Shown: in pieces, positions 12,274 through 59,315 of the stretch | Layout: every line of letters begins with the position of its first letter | Numbering within the stretch: the stretch's first letter is position 1 | NCBI GenBank assembly: GCA_964357615.1 | Contig: CAYHMC010000003.1 | Span: forward strand, 34,678-98,677 | Origin: an uncultured Candidatus Saccharibacteria bacterium | GTDB taxonomy: Bacteria > Patescibacteriota > Minisyncoccia > UBA6257 > JACOXY01 | Reading direction: 5' to 3' | DNA length: 64,000 nucleotides | The notes under the pieces: generated by a model | The model's database searches: none | Told to the model about the DNA's origin: nothing | What the model saw: the letters and a program-made list of their open reading frames with translations, nothing else | Program-made: the position numbers and the translations under genes

Positions 12274-12629
12274 TCGACCTCCGATTTCAACCCTAACCTG
12301 CTATTTCTAGTCAGGATTTTACAGGGCGTGATTCCTTAAGGAGAGACCACAGCAAAAGTTCAAATTACTATTTATAACTATGCTAAACTTTTTTCTATGG
12401 CCTCCCCTAAAGGAGGCGGGAGAGATATGTTTAGGTCTGTTATTTTGTAGTTACGACCAATCATCATATCTGCACCCCATATTTATTTTCTGCGGTCATT
12501 ATACTCGATTTTTATGTATTTGTCAAGTGTCGGTGACAAACCGCTAAAATAAGCCTTATTTACTATATTTTATAAGAAAATTACTCTTTATTACTATGTC
12601 AAAATAGATAGACTTAGTTTTTAATATAC

Positions 12630-12658
12630 TTGACTAAAAGTAAATTATATGTTACAAT
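12630..12658 (+). promoter_or_regulatory. Consensus sigma70-type promoter (TTGACT-17-TACAAT) driving a non-coding unit
   Basis: The -35 TTGACT is at 12630, then a 17-nt spacer, then -10 TACAAT at 12653. Confidence 0.5.
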
Positions 12659-12664
12659 CTGCTC

Positions 12665-12938
12665 GAATGTGGCTATTCTGGTTTTTGTTTGGGCCAAGCT
12701 ATGTTCAGAGTCTGCGCAACCCTCGACTAAGTCGAGGTGGGGCTAAGGAGGTGCCAAATGAAGCTAGGCGGATCAGGTATCTAAAGCAACTCAATTCTGT
12801 GGTCTCTTTTGCAATCACATAGTCTGCTAGGCCAGAGAACAGCAACCAAAAAAAGTCAGTTCAATAGGCATTCCGATATAATTAAATATATCAACTTCCG
12901 GAGGCACCACCATGTGGCAAGCCTCCACTTTTTATTTT
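12665..12938 (+). ncRNA. Candidate structured sRNA (~270 nt), identity unresolved (6S-like architecture possible)
   Basis: Runs from the promoter to an intrinsic terminator (CCGGAGGC…GCCTCC plus T-run, 12898..12938). No ORF beyond 8 codons. The 5' end (GGTTTTTGTTTGGGCCAAGCTATG) pairs with the 3' end (CATAG.GCTAGGCC…AACCAAAAA). Confidence 0.35.
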
Positions 12939-13025
12939 AGCCTACAACTTTAATGCTAATTTTTAATCAAAATTAAAAAATCCAAAGAATTTATTCTTTG
13001 GATTGTAACAACCATAAAAGCTAAC

Positions 13026-17557: not shown

Positions 17558-17734
17558 TATCGTTACATTCTACAGAAAATCCACCATTTTGTGAAACGCA
17601 TGCTATAATAAACTTATGAATCCCGTACGAAATCACGAACACAAATTTAAACATAACATATCTACCATCTTTATTATTAAACATAATATTACGCGAAAAA
17701 ATAAATCATTAGTTCGTGTTCTATTTCGTACGGG

Positions 17735-18616
17735 ATGAATTTTCTTATTCCATTTTTAGGTGCGCTACTTGGCTCTGGAGCAATTATTGTAGATAAAATT
17801 CTTCTTGGCGGAAAAGGCATCACATACAAAAACTATTCTATAATATCATTTCTTGCCGCACTTTTTGTAGCAGGTATAGCATTTATTTTCGTAGGCAAGC
17901 CAATAGTGTCCGAGTTGTTTTATGGCTATGCTGGCTTTCTCTTGATTTTTACGACAATCGCGATTCTAACTTCAAACCTACTTTATTTTCATGCGCTTAA
18001 GCACGACTTGTTAACTGAAATGGAAACGGTGGGTTTATTATCATATATTCCAGTTATAGCTACTTCGTATATTTTTTACACCGATGAACGAAGTTTGCCA
18101 GTTCTTATTTCTGCAATAATAGCATCGCTAGCTGTAATATGGTCACACTGGAAAAAAGGACATCCATTTGTTAGGAAAAGAACTTATCCTTACCTTTTGT
18201 GGTTATTGATTATTGCGCCGATAGAGGCGATTGCTTTTAAAGAAATATTTCTTATGTGGGACCCGATTTCACTTCAGTTTGTGCGTGAAATTATTATAGT
18301 TCCAATTCTGGGTTATATGTATGCAGACACACTAAGGCGTGTTCCAGTGCGGTCTTTTTTTGCAATTTTTTTTACAGGAGCAGTTCTTACTTTAAGTTCT
18401 ATTTTGTTTTTTGTTAGCTACAGCAAATTAGGCATAATCCGTACTACTCTAATTTTTAACTTACAACCATTGCTTGCGTATATCGGAGCGCTTCTTTTTC
18501 TTAAAGAGAAATTTAACAGAAAAAAATTTATTGCATTTTTAATAGTTCTAATTTCAATTGTAGTAGCTCAGAATTACGAACAAATAGAGCTTTTTATAAA
18601 ACAATCCCTACAGTAA
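17735..18616 (+). CDS. Polytopic membrane protein, DMT/EamA-like transporter
   Basis: About 10 predicted TM helices; duplicated 5-TM organisation. Confidence 0.5.
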   Translation: MNFLIPFLGALLGSGAIIVDKILLGGKGITYKNYSIISFLAALFVAGIAFIFVGKPIVSELFYGYAGFLLIFTTIAILTSNLLYFHALKHDLLTEMETVGLLSYIPVIATSYIFYTDERSLPVLISAIIASLAVIWSHWKKGHPFVRKRTYPYLLWLLIIAPIEAIAFKEIFLMWDPISLQFVREIIIVPILGYMYADTLRRVPVRSFFAIFFTGAVLTLSSILFFVSYSKLGIIRTTLIFNLQPLLAYIGALLFLKEKFNRKKFIAFLIVLISIVVAQNYEQIELFIKQSLQ

Positions 18617-22583: not shown

Positions 22584-22931
22584 GGGGATGAAAGGCCTCG
22601 ACAGGCTACTAACCTTAAAAATTGCAAGCAGAGATGTGAAATCTCTTAAAACATTCACAAAAGAATAAGTGCAAACTCATTCAACAAACAACCGGCCTTA
22701 GCATTTGCATAAGACCCATCGACGCTACTTACGCCTAATCGGTTGATCGTCGGTGTTAAATTATTAGGCTCTGTTCCCTACTCCTGCGGAGGGAATGAAT
22801 ATTGAGCGGGAAAGTGTTGTGTGCTTGGCCTCCTGGCACTTGGCACATGACACTTAAAATAATGTCAGGATAAGCTTGTAGATATTTTTAATTTTACGGC
22901 CTGGACGGCGGTTCAAATCCGCCCATCTCCA
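22584..22931 (+). ncRNA. ssrA: tmRNA (SsrA)
   Basis: 5' GGGGATGAAAGGCCTCGACAGG. Tag reading frame GCA AAC TCA TTC AAC AAA CAA CCG GCC TTA GCA TTT GCA TAA gives ANSFNKQPALAFA. 3' tRNA-like end GGCGGTTCAAATCCGCCCATCTCCA. Confidence 0.85.
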
Positions 22932-22943
22932 CAAACTAAAAGA

Positions 22944-28886: not shown

Positions 28887-28948
28887 GTTTCCGGCGATTA
28901 GCCGGATTTTTTATATGAAAAGGATAGAGTCTTAACAAATGAGGAGCT

Positions 28949-29105
28949 GGGCTTCTTGCGAAATACTTCCGAAGCGAAACTTCCAGATTTTCTGCGAAGC
29001 GAAGTAAAAATTTTGAAGTTGTATATAGAATATACTTCAAGAAATTTTTACAAAGTTGGAGCTAAAATATGGAAGTTGGAGTAGAATGTATTTTGCAAGA
29101 AGCCC
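28949..29105. repeat. 157-nt repeat element, copy 2 (closing helix gggcttcttgcgaaatac…gtattttgcaagaagccc)
   Basis: Core about 85% identical to copy 1. The terminal helix sequence differs from copy 1 but stays complementary. Confidence 0.7.
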
Positions 29106-29127
29106 AGGATTTGGTATTATAATCGCT

Positions 29128-38812: not shown

Positions 38813-40690
38813 TTAACCATTAAGAATATTCTTATTTTTATTTGCTCTTCCAAGAAATGCGGTGCTGATGAGTAATGCTCCAATTAAGAAAAAGGTTGCG
38901 GTTCTGATAGGTAATTCCATTTGCCAAACATCAACCAGTAGCAACCTACCTATCACAAAAGCCAAAAGCGCTCCTCCATAAGTAAGCATACCTTTTACTG
39001 CATTTGTTCGACCATAAAAATATGCCATAAGACCAACGATTGTATAAGCAACAAGCGAAATCATTACCGCAGCTTGAGCCCAATCTTTAAAAACAATGTG
39101 AAGCGAAAGCCAAATTAGCGCAAAAACATAGATAGAACTAAGGACGAGGGAGATTATGGTTAGAGATGATTGCGGTATTTTTTCTTTTTCGCTAGCTAGA
39201 TAGAAAAATGCACCAATGCCAAAGAGAGAAAGGGCGAGCATTAAAAGCACAAAAAAGTGTGTATTTAATATGCTGTTATGCCACTCATATAAATCTAGAC
39301 TTCCAAAAGACATAAGTATCGGCCCAATAATAAGAAATGAAAGAGCTTCGCTCTCTTCTCTCCTGCGCAAGACAACATAAGAAATAATTGGGATAAGCGC
39401 GCTTTCTATCGTGTAGGCTATTGTAAGTACAGCTCCATCTAGCTCAGCTGCAGTTGCAGCGGCAAGCATTGCAATACTTACGCCCAAATAGATATAAAAT
39501 GGTTCGCGTCTACCAGTTGCCCTAAAAATACTAAATCCACCGGCAGCGAAAACAACCATCCATGCTGAGATTATTAAGCTTCTCCACTCGGTTGACGCAG
39601 CAGACCAAATCCACAAAAGAAGCAGTAGACCATTTATTGATGCGGTAACAAGATCTGATGTAATTGATTTATCCTGAACCTTTAGAGCTCCTAAAGTGTG
39701 CGAAACATAAAATATTCCAGAGAACGCATATATAAAAAGCAAAACAACTTGAGGATCAGCTCCGCTGTATCCATTCAAATCTGGCAAACTATATAATCCA
39801 ACCATCATTAATCCTGCCGTAATAAGCTCTCTCCACCCCCTAAGTGCAGCTACCCAAAGAGTTCCAATAACAACAACCAGCAAATATGAATATAGTCCTA
39901 TGTGAGTTGTATCAGTCGAATTTGTAAGTAGCGGAGCAAAACCAGCCAAAATTAAACTTGAAAATGCTAAACTGCGACTCTGGTAGCGAACCGAAGCAAA
40001 CGCAACAAGCGCAGTGCTCATAAACATAATTACAAGCGCAGATAAAGGATCGAAAAAATTATAAAGTTGTCGCGCTGCAAATGTAGTTAGTAAAATTACA
40101 GTTGAACCCAAAACAATAAAAGTACCACCTTGATTTAGGTATTTGTTTATTCTCCAAAAACCCAGAATCATAATTAATGCTCCAGAAACAAGACCTAATG
40201 AAATTCGGCCCATCTCACCAATCCAGTCGTTTAATATGGCATAAGTGACAAACCATCCAAAACCAAGAAGAATTAGGAATGCGCCGAGCTTTAAAAGCCA
40301 ATCATCTTTTAGCCATTCAAAAAATCGCCCACTCCAATCCGATTCTGATTCATAAGAACTTGGCATCATTGAATCTCTATCCTGATCTTTATGAAAGTGA
40401 GATGTATAAGGTGCTGGTGGTAAATTTCCTGTTGTACCCAAATTACTGCTTGCCTCGCCAGAAACAAAAACACCTTCATCTTTCTTAAGATTACTCATCT
40501 GTTCTTTGATTTCTCTTCTAGAAAGTTTGTCGATTTGATTTTCTAGATTTCTAACACGCTCCCCAAGTTTTCCAATACGAATAAAAGTAATTATAGGAGC
40601 AACAAAAACAAAAAAGACAATTAAGCCACCGAAGAAAAGTAATGAATCCATCCCGTTAGAAGCAGATCGCGATAAAGATAACGCGATCAA
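38813..40690 (-). CDS. Large polytopic membrane protein (DUF2339-like), N-terminal coiled coil
   Basis: More than 14 predicted TM helices. Abuts the upstream TSP3 gene with no gap. Confidence 0.45.
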   Translation of the reverse strand: MIALSLSRSASNGMDSLLFFGGLIVFFVFVAPIITFIRIGKLGERVRNLENQIDKLSRREIKEQMSNLKKDEGVFVSGEASSNLGTTGNLPPAPYTSHFHKDQDRDSMMPSSYESESDWSGRFFEWLKDDWLLKLGAFLILLGFGWFVTYAILNDWIGEMGRISLGLVSGALIMILGFWRINKYLNQGGTFIVLGSTVILLTTFAARQLYNFFDPLSALVIMFMSTALVAFASVRYQSRSLAFSSLILAGFAPLLTNSTDTTHIGLYSYLLVVVIGTLWVAALRGWRELITAGLMMVGLYSLPDLNGYSGADPQVVLLFIYAFSGIFYVSHTLGALKVQDKSITSDLVTASINGLLLLLWIWSAASTEWRSLIISAWMVVFAAGGFSIFRATGRREPFYIYLGVSIAMLAAATAAELDGAVLTIAYTIESALIPIISYVVLRRREESEALSFLIIGPILMSFGSLDLYEWHNSILNTHFFVLLMLALSLFGIGAFFYLASEKEKIPQSSLTIISLVLSSIYVFALIWLSLHIVFKDWAQAAVMISLVAYTIVGLMAYFYGRTNAVKGMLTYGGALLAFVIGRLLLVDVWQMELPIRTATFFLIGALLISTAFLGRANKNKNILNG

Positions 40691-40832
40691 TGCTTATTAT
40701 AAAATAACTCGACTTGTATTTAGATTGTATTTTCATATTTGTAAAAATAGTGATCGCGGCTTCTAACGGGATCCATTTATTAATTATAGTGTTATTTACG
40801 ATATTATCACTGTGGATAATATTCTTAAATTT

Positions 40833-56266: not shown

Positions 56267-57301
56267 TTAAATTAACGAACCGCCAGGCCTCAGCCCTAAG
56301 TGCTTATAAGCTAACTCGGTAGCAATACGCCCACTGGGTGTTCTTTCTAAAAATCCTAAACTCATTAGATATGGCTCATAAACATCCTCAATCGTTCCTT
56401 TGTCTTCATTTAATGCTGCGGCAAGCGCATTAATACCAACTGGTCCGCCACTAAATTTTGAAATGACTGTTTCAAGAAAGCGCCTATCAGAATCCTCAAG
56501 ACCACCCTCATCAATACCTAGAAAGCTTAGGGCTTTTTTACAAATTTGCTCGTCAACCAAACCTTGGCCCTTAACTTCAGCGAAATCACGAACACGCTTA
56601 AGCAAGCGATTAGCCACGCGTGGCGTAGCTCTACTAGCTTTAGCTAAAACATTAATAGCTCCGTCGTCTATTTTAACACCCAAAAGCTTACTAGATCTTT
56701 TAACGACTTGAACGATATCGTTTAAGTCATAGTAATCCAACTTAAATGTTGCCCCAAACCTAGACCTTAGTGGACCAGAGAGCAGGCTCATACGAGTTGT
56801 TGCGGCTATAAGCGTAAACGGTGGCAAATCTAAAGTAATACTTCTAGCTCCTGGCCCCTTACCAACCATTAAGTGAAGTTTGCGTGATTCAAGGGCTGGA
56901 TAAAAAACTTCTTCTATTAGCCTATTCAACCTGTGAATTTCATCGATAAAAAGCACATCACCTTCTTCGAGATTACTTAAAACAGCGGCAATGTCTCCTG
57001 TTTTTTCTAATGTAGGTCCTGAGGTAATTTTTATAGCGCTACCCATTTCCCTGCAAACCAAGTGAGCGAGGGTAGTTTTGCCAAGCCCCGCTTGCCCATA
57101 GAACAATAGGTGGTCTATGCATTCTTTCCTTCTCCTCGCAGCCTCAATGATAATTTTAAGATTCTTTTTGACCGTTTCTTGACCAACATATTCATCCCAA
57201 GTCGTTGGACGCAAAATTTGATCAATATTTCCAGTTGGTTCACTATCTTTCTTTGACTTTTCTTCTTTTTCAGCTTTGTCGTTTTGTTTTTTATCTATCA
57301 T
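56267..57301 (-). CDS. ruvB: Holliday junction DNA helicase RuvB
   Basis: Walker A GQAGLGKTTLA and Walker B LFIDEIHRL. Winged-helix C-terminus. Confidence 0.9.
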   Translation of the reverse strand: MIDKKQNDKAEKEEKSKKDSEPTGNIDQILRPTTWDEYVGQETVKKNLKIIIEAARRRKECIDHLLFYGQAGLGKTTLAHLVCREMGSAIKITSGPTLEKTGDIAAVLSNLEEGDVLFIDEIHRLNRLIEEVFYPALESRKLHLMVGKGPGARSITLDLPPFTLIAATTRMSLLSGPLRSRFGATFKLDYYDLNDIVQVVKRSSKLLGVKIDDGAINVLAKASRATPRVANRLLKRVRDFAEVKGQGLVDEQICKKALSFLGIDEGGLEDSDRRFLETVISKFSGGPVGINALAAALNEDKGTIEDVYEPYLMSLGFLERTPSGRIATELAYKHLGLRPGGSLI

Positions 57302-57396
57302 GATTATTAGTATTTATACACTAAAACGGTCGAAATTACAGTTTTTTCACTAATTTAGCTCGAATGATTCTAGTAATGGCCCCTAAATATAGGGGG

Positions 57397-57425
57397 TTGA
57401 CATTTTCATTTTTTTATGCTAATAT
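57397..57425 (+). promoter_or_regulatory. Consensus sigma70 promoter TTGACA-17-TAATAT in an intergenic region with no downstream ORF
   Basis: Exact -35 hexamer, 17-nt spacer, and a near-consensus -10. Confidence 0.5.
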
Positions 57426-57431
57426 TTGTAC

Positions 57432-57632
57432 GATATTTGTTCTTTGTTTGGGTCTGTGGGCGGGAATTTCTTTTAGCACCAAGGATTGTCTGGCTTCGGC
57501 TGGACTTCTCCTCGAAGGAATTCTAACCTCTTTTTATTTTAAGAAGAGACTAATTTAGTCCCTCCCACCAGTTTTGCTGATTATTCGGCAAAAGTGGCGG
57601 GGGGGCATATGCCCACAGACCCAAACAAAAAA
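57432..57632 (+). ncRNA. Candidate structured sRNA (~200 nt), 6S-like closed-hairpin architecture; identity unresolved
   Basis: TTGTTTGGGTCTGTGGGC (57444..57461) pairs perfectly with GCCCACAGACCCAAACAA (57611..57628). Internal hairpins, including a UUCG loop. No ORF. Confidence 0.35.
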
Positions 57633-59315
57633 CTACCAATTTAAAGGACCGGTTATCCTTTCCACCTCATCTAAAGTAGTAATCCCTAGAAGAGCTCGCA
57701 AAATACCCGCCTGCTGAATTGTTACAATACCCAATGATTTAGTAGCGGTCTTTATATCAACATCGGTTACTTCTTTTGAAATCAGCTGACTTACTAAGTC
57801 GGTTACTTTTAGAATTTCCATTATGGCAATTCTTCCTTTGTAACCTATGCCATTACAAGCGCTACAACCCACTGGTTGGTATAAAATTATATTTTTATAT
57901 TTATCTTGTGGCACCGTGCTGGGGAGAGACTGTAAAAATGTAGAAATTTTAGGTTTGAATTTTTCTGTTGCCTCGGTTTGAGGTTTTTTGCATTTATCAC
58001 AAAGACGCCTAACTAAACGCTGTGCGATTATTAAATTTATTGCCGGTCCCATAATAGCTGGCTTTGCTCCCAAATCAACAAGCCTCGGAATAGCTCCGAA
58101 AGAATCATTTGTGTGTAGTGTTGAAAATACAAGATGTCCGGTAAGTGCAGCGTTCAGTGCAATGTCTGCTGTTTCATAGTCTCTTATTTCTCCTATTAAA
58201 ATTACATCTGGGTCTTGCCTAACAATCGAACGCAATCCGCTTGCAAATGTGTAACCTGCTTCGGGGTTTACTTGGGTTTGTTCAACTCCTGGTAATTTAT
58301 ATTCAATCGGGTCTTCTATGGTAATCATTTTGTCCTCTGGTTTATTTACATGAACTAAAAAAGCGTATAGTGTTGTGGTTTTCCCTGAGCCAGTTGGTCC
58401 AGTGTTTAAAATCATTCCATTGGGTCGCTGAAGTTCTACTTCGATAATCTTAAGGTCTTCGTCGTTTAGGCCAAGGTCTTTTAGAGAAAGTAAAATTGTA
58501 TCTGGATCAAGAACTCTTAAAACTACGGTTTCTCCGTATTCAGACGGGAGAGCTGACGCCCTAATTTCGATTGTTTTTTTACCCATCTTCACCGAGAATC
58601 TTCCATCCTGAGCTGCATTGTGAATATTAAGTTTCATTGATGCAAGAAGTTTAATTCGCGAGAGCACCAAAAAATATTCTGACTGTGGAAAACCAGAATA
58701 TATTTCATGCAACAAACCATCAATACGAAGTCTAAATTTTACTCCTTCTTGTTCTGGTTCTAAATGAATATCGGATGCTTTAAGAGAAAGGGCTGCGGCA
58801 AGTACAATTTCTAAAACCTGTCCCGTGGCAACCTGCGACTTCAGAGCACTATCAATTGTTATTCGCGTTGCCTCTAAAGAAGAAATGCTCTCTTGAAGTT
58901 TGATTAATCTATCGTTATCTATCTCAACTTTTCCAGTAATATCTCCTAATTTTTTTCCAGCCAAATCATAAAAACTCCAAACTCTTTCGATGCCAGACAT
59001 AGAACCAATTAGTATGTCTATTTTTTTTGCTTTTTTAAGTAGTTGGTCGATTGTTTTTTTTGTGTTTGGTAATGAAGGGTCATAAGCAACAACAATAAGT
59101 TTATCTCTTTTTTCAGCAAGAATTGCGCATTTTGCTTCGTGTGCTTCTTCTTTTGATAAAATCGATACGGCGCTCACTTGAATTGGTGCTGTTTTTAGAT
59201 CAATATAAGTATATCCAAGTTTTTCGGCTCTTCGCTTTGCATCGCGCTCCTCTGCCTCTCGTGACATTTTCGTCAGTTTTTCTCCTAGTTTTGGCTTTGA
59301 AGATAAAGATGACAT
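57633..59315 (-). CDS. pilB: Type IV pilus / type II secretion assembly ATPase (PilB/GspE family)
   Basis: Walker A GPTGSGKTTT, an Asp box, a His box, and a C-terminal tetracysteine (CDKC…CSAC). Confidence 0.85.
   Translation of the reverse strand: MSSLSSKPKLGEKLTKMSREAEERDAKRRAEKLGYTYIDLKTAPIQVSAVSILSKEEAHEAKCAILAEKRDKLIVVAYDPSLPNTKKTIDQLLKKAKKIDILIGSMSGIERVWSFYDLAGKKLGDITGKVEIDNDRLIKLQESISSLEATRITIDSALKSQVATGQVLEIVLAAALSLKASDIHLEPEQEGVKFRLRIDGLLHEIYSGFPQSEYFLVLSRIKLLASMKLNIHNAAQDGRFSVKMGKKTIEIRASALPSEYGETVVLRVLDPDTILLSLKDLGLNDEDLKIIEVELQRPNGMILNTGPTGSGKTTTLYAFLVHVNKPEDKMITIEDPIEYKLPGVEQTQVNPEAGYTFASGLRSIVRQDPDVILIGEIRDYETADIALNAALTGHLVFSTLHTNDSFGAIPRLVDLGAKPAIMGPAINLIIAQRLVRRLCDKCKKPQTEATEKFKPKISTFLQSLPSTVPQDKYKNIILYQPVGCSACNGIGYKGRIAIMEILKVTDLVSQLISKEVTDVDIKTATKSLGIVTIQQAGILRALLGITTLDEVERITGPLNW

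Follow-up and report, generated by a model that had tools for sequence, protein, structure and literature searches.

6S RNA (ssrS, RF00013) is a rod with a large central bubble that is single-stranded on both sides, and the 5' strand of the bubble templates product RNA. The SRP 4.5S RNA and the bacterial Y RNAs are housekeeping or protein-partner RNAs whose ends are clamped by pairing, and the domain IV motif of SRP RNA combines a GNAR loop with nearby symmetric and asymmetric loops. A large part of bacterial diversity falls in the CPR/Patescibacteria, which have tiny genomes with very short intergenic regions. To our knowledge, essentially no small RNAs have been characterised in this group. 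The transcriptome paper on TM7x, a cultured Saccharibacterium, speaks of "no currently validated small RNAs". Literature searches on 6S, SRP and non-coding RNA in CPR, and on an RNA motif at pilB/ruvB, yielded no description of the family reported here.

In the present study, we analysed a segment between ruvB and pilB that a preliminary description had flagged in a 64-kb stretch of DNA; "the window" below means this whole stretch. On the sequence evidence, we consider it a solid conclusion that the segment is a separate structured small RNA gene on the plus strand. The RNA belongs to a family that spans the CPR/Patescibacteria and is absent from Rfam 15. With a promoter of its own, a fold backed by covariation and no conserved frame, it falls in the generic class of stand-alone structured small RNA genes, in which we rate it as a new family.

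Promoter and neighbouring genes

The gap between ruvB and pilB measures 331 nt, and both flanking genes lie on the minus strand: ruvB at 56267-57301 (Pfam RuvB_N, AAA_lid_4 and RuvB_C) and a gene for a pilB-type T2SSE ATPase at 57633-59315 (Pfam T2SSE). A consensus scan of the plus strand places a -35 hexamer, TTGACA, at 57397-57402 and an extended -10 element, TGcTAATAT, at 57417-57425; TAATAT itself occupies 57420-57425, at a 17-nt spacing from TTGACA. Direct reading together with the Pfam matches therefore bears out the TTGACA-17-TAATAT promoter that had been described between minus-strand ruvB and pilB. This promoter is divergent from ruvB, and the RNA is convergent with pilB. Transcription is predicted to start at about 57431-57433. 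The whole predicted RNA, of about 195-200 nt, would occupy 57432-57635 on the plus strand, with its ends deduced from the position of the promoter and from the closing helix P1, which begins 14 bases past the -10 element.

This near-consensus sigma-70 promoter is conserved in the family. Among 60 non-redundant homologues, 54 have TTGAC[AT] in the 110 nt that precede P1, and 49 have the extended -10 pattern TGnTAnnnT in the 70 nt that precede it. The offset from TTGAC[AT] to the extended -10 element is constant across homologues at 20 nt.

The segment had been said to contain no ORF. Strictly, three mechanical ORFs, of 64, 36 and 47 aa, overlap it, the first two beginning upstream of the predicted transcription start. 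Coding is argued against by the covariation, compensatory changes and indels seen in the family. No conserved reading frame was found in the RNA family, and indels accompanied by compensatory changes are incompatible with coding.

A G+C-rich hairpin, GGCCCCTAAATATAGGGGG (57377-57399), adjoins the -35 box, with a T-rich run after it. A different hairpin stands at the matching position in locus L001. The window hairpin may be an element proximal to the promoter, or may serve to terminate antisense transcription of ruvB. The window contains a sole other promoter of the TTGAC[AT]/extended -10 type, TTGACT-17-TGTTACAAT (12630-13025, plus strand), which is probably the "first orphan promoter" of the preliminary description. 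It faces about 750 nt (12274-13025) without an ORF of at least 60 aa, and the first 246 nt after it fold with a z-score of only -1.5. A canonical tmRNA gene is located at 22584-22934 (Rfam, 146.6 bits).

No record was found with the exact sequence of the window's own PilB. Many CPR homologues of PilB (P0008, P0010, P0012, P0024 and others) are 750-980 aa long, compared with 560 aa in the window, and these long proteins have 200-400 extra residues and additional Pfam matches, consistent with an insertion in the ATPase, possibly an intein.

Fold of the RNA and its homologues

The plus strand (201 nt) folds at -100.8 kcal/mol, compared with -52.5 +/- 4.1 kcal/mol for dinucleotide shuffles (z = -11.9), and none of 200 shuffles folded as well. 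The minimum-energy fold is a four-way junction of helices P1 to P4. P1 closes the molecule by pairing 57439-57462 with 57610-57633. Its outer part covaries only, its inner part on the 5' strand (CUGUGGGC) is conserved in sequence, and its 3' strand (GCCCACAG...) ends on the first base of the complement of the pilB stop codon. Pairing of 57439-57461 with 57611-57633 gives 23 bp with one mismatch (96% complementarity) and includes the perfect 18-bp duplex (57444-57461 with 57611-57628) on which attention to the segment had rested.

The P2 arm (57463-57524) is the conserved core of the family, and only 0-1 unpaired nucleotides separate it from P1 on the 5' side in the window. Its outer helix (57463-57473 with 57514-57524) and its inner helix (57483-57494 with 57499-57511) are separated by an internal loop with UAG+N on the 5' side and UC on the 3' side. 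The inner helix, GGA...UCUGGC[UUCG]GCUGGA...UCC, has tandem U·G/G·U pairs and a bulged C at 57508. Its UUCG loop, at 57495-57498, confirms the UUCG-loop hairpin seen earlier (57488-57505). P3 (57528-57548) is a hairpin of CUCUUUUUA and UAAGAAGAG with a pyrimidine-rich 5' strand. P4 (57558-57606) is a lineage-specific hairpin of 20 bp with CCCUCCCACC/GGCGGGGGGG in its outer part and CCAGUUUUGC/GCAAAAGUGG in its inner part. The CCAGUUUUGC/GCAAAAGUGG hairpin described earlier is the inner part of P4. The G/C-rich runs CCCUCCCACC/GGCGGGGGGG pair with each other, but they do so inside one hairpin and do not form helices flanking a bubble.

By synteny, nhmmer and pattern scanning, we identified about 90 homologues in CPR genomes and metagenomes, from Saccharibacteria and from Lipton-, Portnoy-, Wolfe- and Jorgensenbacteria. 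Among GTDB genomes with RuvB relatives, a homologous element lies upstream of ruvB in L001, whose RuvB is 88% identical to that of the window, in L013 (Liptonbacteria) and in L008 (Portnoybacteria). An inverted but recognisable version is present in L002 and L005 (Saccharibacteria) and in L006 (labelled Harrisonbacteria). A degenerate pattern drawn from the shared core, GGAYNNNNYGGCTNNGGCTRGNNNNCTCCTC, returned 99 stretches in a metagenome scan. About 86 of these have a closing helix of 13-30 bp around the core, and four or five GC-rich matches are due to chance. One stretch, L079, from a Hainich groundwater assembly (ENA ERZ1292625), is identical to the window. The covariance model built for the family, R1, matches the window at 57440-57632 on the plus strand with 114 bits (E = 1e-21), as a single copy in the 64 kb.

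PilB homologues of 51-54% identity led to seven further loci, some of them from Wolfebacteria, Jorgensenbacteria and Parcubacteria. The RNA was found at 76-119 bits in all six of these loci that keep pilB beside ruvB; this retrieval is independent of the pattern, with the limit that R1 was itself built from the pattern-derived set. A more distant relative, in L007, scored 24.8 bits. No meaningful similarity to the RNA was found in E. coli. No copies of the RNA were found in viral contigs, and phage records gave just a 34-nt chance match; a phage origin was rejected on these two grounds. As far as sampled, the spread of the family is limited to CPR/Patescibacteria.

The fold is strongly supported by an alignment of 61 non-redundant sequences (A1). 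RNAalifold on A1 gives 44 pairs and finds compensatory double changes in 32, and our own structure of 43 pairs has double compensatory changes in 31. In the 43-pair structure 94.4% of cells pair, versus 39-53% in controls with the 3' partners shifted by 1-3 columns; covariation scores 0.547 in the true register and at most 0.18 in the shifted ones, and none of 500 shuffles reaches the observed values of pairing or covariation. In P1 alone, both partners vary in 19 of 21 pairs, and pairing holds in 96.5% of cells. The inner 8 bp of P1 are conserved as CUGNRGGC/GCCYNCAG, and the pair at the N position swaps among U-A, G-C and C-G.

Conservation in P2 is of a different kind. An outer helix of about 10 bp leads to an asymmetric internal loop, with UAG and 1-7 variable nucleotides on the 5' side and UC on the 3' side. 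The consensus of the inner 12-bp helix is GGA-Y-NNN-YUGGC[YNNG]GCUGG-NNN-R-C-UCC, with the bulged C and the tandem U·G/G·U pairs. In the metagenome set this invariance is partly circular, because the search pattern fixes part of P2. The circularity is mitigated because the PilB-homologue loci and 12 sequences not found through the DNA pattern agree with the rest. These 12 share the same P1, inner P2, P3 and conserved core, with GGA/UCC, the G·U pairs and the G-C pairs present in 11-12 of the 12, and the apical C-G pair of P2 changes to U-A in three of them. The same switch from C-G to U-A occurs in the six PilB-homologue loci, where UUCCUC replaces CUCCUC.

Outside P1 and P2 the family is more variable. 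Nearly all homologues have a hairpin at the position of P3, with differing sequences. P4 is found in about half of the family; it is common to the window, L001 and L013, and elsewhere there are shorter hairpins or none. One subgroup has an additional hairpin between P1 and P2, and the smallest members (110 nt, L032) consist essentially of P1 and P2. Most members have 0-2 unpaired nucleotides on the 5' side of the junction, and very few unpaired nucleotides are conserved across the family. Inspection of the alignment led us to reject a UUAG/CUAA pseudoknot, which shows no covariation and for which several members that keep UUAG have no CUAA. Readings of the P2 internal loop as a K-turn or as a tetraloop receptor were also rejected, as the sequence requirements of these motifs are not present.

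Strand, termination and genomic slot

At pairs not fixed by the search pattern, G·U/U·G combinations fill 309 cells and A·C/C·A combinations 45. This excess fixes the plus strand as the RNA strand. R1 likewise favours the plus strand of the window, with 114 bits against 33 for the minus strand. These two results and the conservation of the promoter in 49-54 of 60 homologues support the independent plus-strand RNA, with its own promoter, that had been proposed. For the same reasons we rejected the possibility that the segment is merely the 3' UTR or terminator of pilB on the minus strand. The plus strand also folds more strongly than the minus strand (-100.8 versus -86.8 kcal/mol), and the window has no minus-strand U-run after the element.

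A T-run of at least four directly follows P1 in 37 of 57 relatives, compared with 18% of background windows; on the opposite strand, after the complement of P1, the figure is 20 of 57 against the same 18% background. Together, the strand asymmetry, the conserved promoter and the T-run after P1 indicate that the RNA family is a self-contained transcription unit. The window copy is of the minority type without a U-run after P1. In this respect the preliminary description was accurate on direct reading, both in the missing U-run and in placing the 3' end of the RNA at the pilB stop.

The same strand asymmetry bears on the idea that the segment acts as DNA, either as a miniature transposon with terminal inverted repeats or as a protein-bound or cruciform palindrome. 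The 23-bp terminal inverted repeat invites this idea, as do other palindromic elements dispersed in the window. We regard it as having next to no chance of being correct: there is one copy in 64 kb, it occupies the same syntenic slot across distant lineages, its arms covary and are not conserved in sequence, G·U over A·C is a signature of RNA, and viral contigs and phage records are without copies. A miniature inverted-repeat element in particular was rejected on its single copy, its syntenic location and the RNA-type covariation.

Palindromic elements with 27-nt arms, ATCCCGTTAGAAGC...GCTTCTAACGGGAT, occur in the window at 40637-40785 and 17607-17749. Others of this type are found near the 5' end of ruvB in L001 and downstream of the RNA in L043, L074 and L097. 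This distribution suggests a repeat family, MITE-like or otherwise, dispersed in the genome and in related CPR contigs. At 28947-29107, a 20-nt inverted repeat encloses another strongly structured intergenic segment, whose plus strand has a folding energy of -89 kcal/mol.

The genomic setting of the RNA is nearly fixed. In nearly every locus ruvB points leftward, the RNA rightward and pilB leftward; in about 90% of loci the RNA is on the other strand from both its neighbours. The start of ruvB lies 60-300 nt before P1 and the pilB stop, in most homologous loci, 0-150 nt after it; tsaE, polA, yebC and ruvC are nearby. The exceptions are of two kinds. In L002, L005 and L006 the RNA is inverted and co-directional with pilB and ruvB; in L029, which closely resembles them, it is oriented as in most loci. 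In L003 and L004 (Patescibacteria) pilB stands directly beside ruvB with no RNA between, and in this lineage the RNA has been either lost or moved.

The three loci with an inverted RNA share further features. A conserved pair of DnaA-box-like repeats, TATCCACAGGTTATCCA, precedes the RNA promoter by about 100-130 nt, these Saccharibacteria-type copies are also flanked by a second conserved hairpin element, and L006 has a third copy of a P1 arm about 250 nt upstream. The DnaA-box-like repeats raised the idea of a replication origin, which was rejected, as the window shows no skew switch or box cluster near the element.

Such a fixed arrangement, with the RNA near-universally between two co-directional genes and in the opposite orientation, might mean that the element serves as a cis antisense or insulator element of the pilB-ruvB unit and blocks or processes pilB read-through into ruvB. 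It could do so through polymerase collision, through a complementary duplex cut by RNase III, or through P1 as a two-way terminator; where the U-run is missing, as in the window, an antisense RNA against the 3' end of pilB would also be made. The short distance from P1 to the pilB stop fits such a role, as do the enrichment of opposite-strand T-runs (20 of 57 versus 18%) and the lack of a terminator in the window copy. We nevertheless think it unlikely. Neither collision nor antisense pairing needs the near-invariant nucleotides, conserved G·U pairs, bulged C and internal loop of P2, and the excess of G·U reflects selection on the plus-strand fold only. Furthermore, L002, L005 and L006 keep the RNA after its inversion onto the strand of pilB and ruvB, and in L003 and L004 pilB adjoins ruvB without any such element. 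On these sequence patterns, a purely cis-antisense or insulator role would be hard to reconcile with the conservation of P2 and with retention of the RNA after inversion.

The convergence of the RNA with pilB, the U-run after P1 in 65% of relatives and the complex conserved junction fold could also be read as a riboswitch-like RNA, which senses a ligand or signal and in which P1 and the U-run terminator gate antisense transcription into pilB. This appears highly improbable, because P1 (15-28 bp and nearly perfect) is far too stable to depend on a ligand and because the RNA precedes no gene in sense orientation. Alternative pairing was not detected in the family, many members including the window have no U-run, and the inverted copies face ruvB.

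Proposed function and relation to known RNAs

The explanation that we favour, and to which we attach moderate confidence, is that this stand-alone structured RNA gene would encode a trans-acting RNA that most likely has a protein partner bound through P2. The RNA would act as a folded molecule rather than by base-pairing, and would most likely be the RNA partner of a conserved protein. P1 is proposed to clamp the 5' and 3' ends and shield them from exonucleases, and in most relatives P1 and the following U-run would form an intrinsic terminator. In the window genome, which has no U-run, the 3' end would presumably arise when the transcript is trimmed as far as P1, and part of the transcription may continue antisense into the 3' end of pilB. 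The P2 arm would provide the specific recognition surface, made up of the UAG/UC internal loop, the bulged C, GGA/UCC, the tandem U·G/G·U pairs and the YNNG tetraloop, with P3 and P4 as structural accessories. That P2 probably binds protein is suggested by its conservation pattern, on which this proposal rests.

Two observations argue for action in trans. The family offers hardly any conserved unpaired nucleotides for base-pairing, and the RNA is kept in both orientations, an inversion that a cis-antisense element should not tolerate. In contrast, the strict linkage to pilB and ruvB could point to a local, cis role and counts against the trans reading.

We also considered a housekeeping ribonucleoprotein RNA that is universal in CPR and has no counterpart in other bacteria, a reading that seems to us quite unlikely. 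In one version the RNA would be a decoy of the 16S rRNA 3' end and titrate a factor that binds or processes the 3' end of the small subunit; in another it would functionally replace 6S RNA in reduced genomes. The decoy idea comes from the conserved 3' half of P2, GGCUGG-N4-CUCCUC, which resembles helix 45 and the anti-Shine-Dalgarno tail. It matches 11 of the 12 specified letters of the 16S 3' end (helix 45 3' strand and anti-Shine-Dalgarno), GGCUGGAUCACCUCCUU, with a 1-nt difference in spacing. The 16S tail, however, is single-stranded, whereas in P2 the UCC is paired with GGA and GCUGG lies beside the tetraloop; unlike the 16S 3' end, pattern-independent members of the family read UUCCUC or ACUGG. 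The resemblance may be due to chance. The 16S 3' end itself was looked for in the window and homologous loci and is not present there. As a test of rRNA mimicry, P2 showed no similarity to E. coli sequences, which is a weak test because E. coli has GGUUGG at this site.

The fixed slot, the near-consensus promoter, the covariation-proven fold and the occurrence from Saccharibacteria to Parcubacteria make this RNA a strong candidate for a core function of the lineage as a whole. The covariance model R1 is ready for annotating CPR genomes, and the RNA gives pull-down or knock-down work a defined target in those few Saccharibacteria that can be manipulated genetically. It may offer a handle on the regulation, in CPR, of the pilus, DNA-uptake and recombination cluster, or of the translation or transcription machinery.

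The preliminary description had likened the RNA to 6S and called for an Rfam search and a comparison of folds. Neither supports the likeness. Rfam 15 at the gathering threshold returned only tmRNA and tRNA in the 64-kb window, and only tmRNA and tRNAs in 146 kb of related loci. At E <= 10 the RNA region gave chance microRNA and snoRNA matches only, and at E <= 5 nothing was found at the element in 18 homologous loci. Hence there is no match to 6S or to any Rfam 15 family. The fold is a multi-helix junction in which P1 abuts P2 on the 5' side. As P1 runs into P2 directly there, the RNA has no two-stranded central bubble, and with no 5' bubble strand there is no template for product RNA. The supposed internal helices of 6S correspond to one optional hairpin, P4, which is absent from about half of the family.

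A divergent 6S-type RNA, an abundant rod that mimics open promoter DNA and sequesters RNA polymerase holoenzyme, would nonetheless fit the size of the family (about 130-200 nt) and its housekeeping-type promoter, and the closing helix and terminal arm could stack as a rod, with the 3' side of the junction carrying P3 and P4. No 6S match occurs elsewhere in the 64-kb window or in the 146 kb of related loci, which is compatible with this role but uninformative. We consider the role very unlikely. The 6S model has no match even at E <= 5-10 in 19 family members, most members have 0-2 unpaired nucleotides on the 5' junction side and so no product-RNA template, and conservation peaks in the apical P2 arm and not in the flanks of the junction.

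The trans-acting RNA that we favour shares with 6S RNA a stand-alone, promoter-driven gene, a similar length, closure by a long helix and an extended terminal arm; like 6S RNA it is probably abundant and trans-acting. It differs from 6S RNA in having a hairpin-bearing junction in place of the two-stranded bubble and in having its conservation in the apical arm. It resembles the SRP 4.5S and Y RNAs in its paired termini, its long helix and its single copy per locus, as well as in the conserved internal loop and bulged nucleotide of a long hairpin, a possible protein site. Unlike SRP RNA, P2 has an apical stem of 12 bp capped by a YNNG loop and shows no domain IV loop arrangement. Rfam gave no SRP or Y RNA match in the window and the 18 homologous loci, and no Ro or Ffh gene lies near the RNA in the window and homologous loci. 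Nor is it a retron msr-msd RNA, which would have a reverse transcriptase gene next to it: the neighbours in the window and loci are pilB, ruvB, tsaE, polA and yebC.

The RNA also resembles the orphan classes of the raiA, OLE, ROOL and HEARO type, which came from comparative genomics and are likewise defined by covariation, restricted in lineage but wide within it, and unassigned in function. It differs from them in having no Rfam 15 match, in its restriction to CPR as sampled and in its slot between pilB and ruvB.
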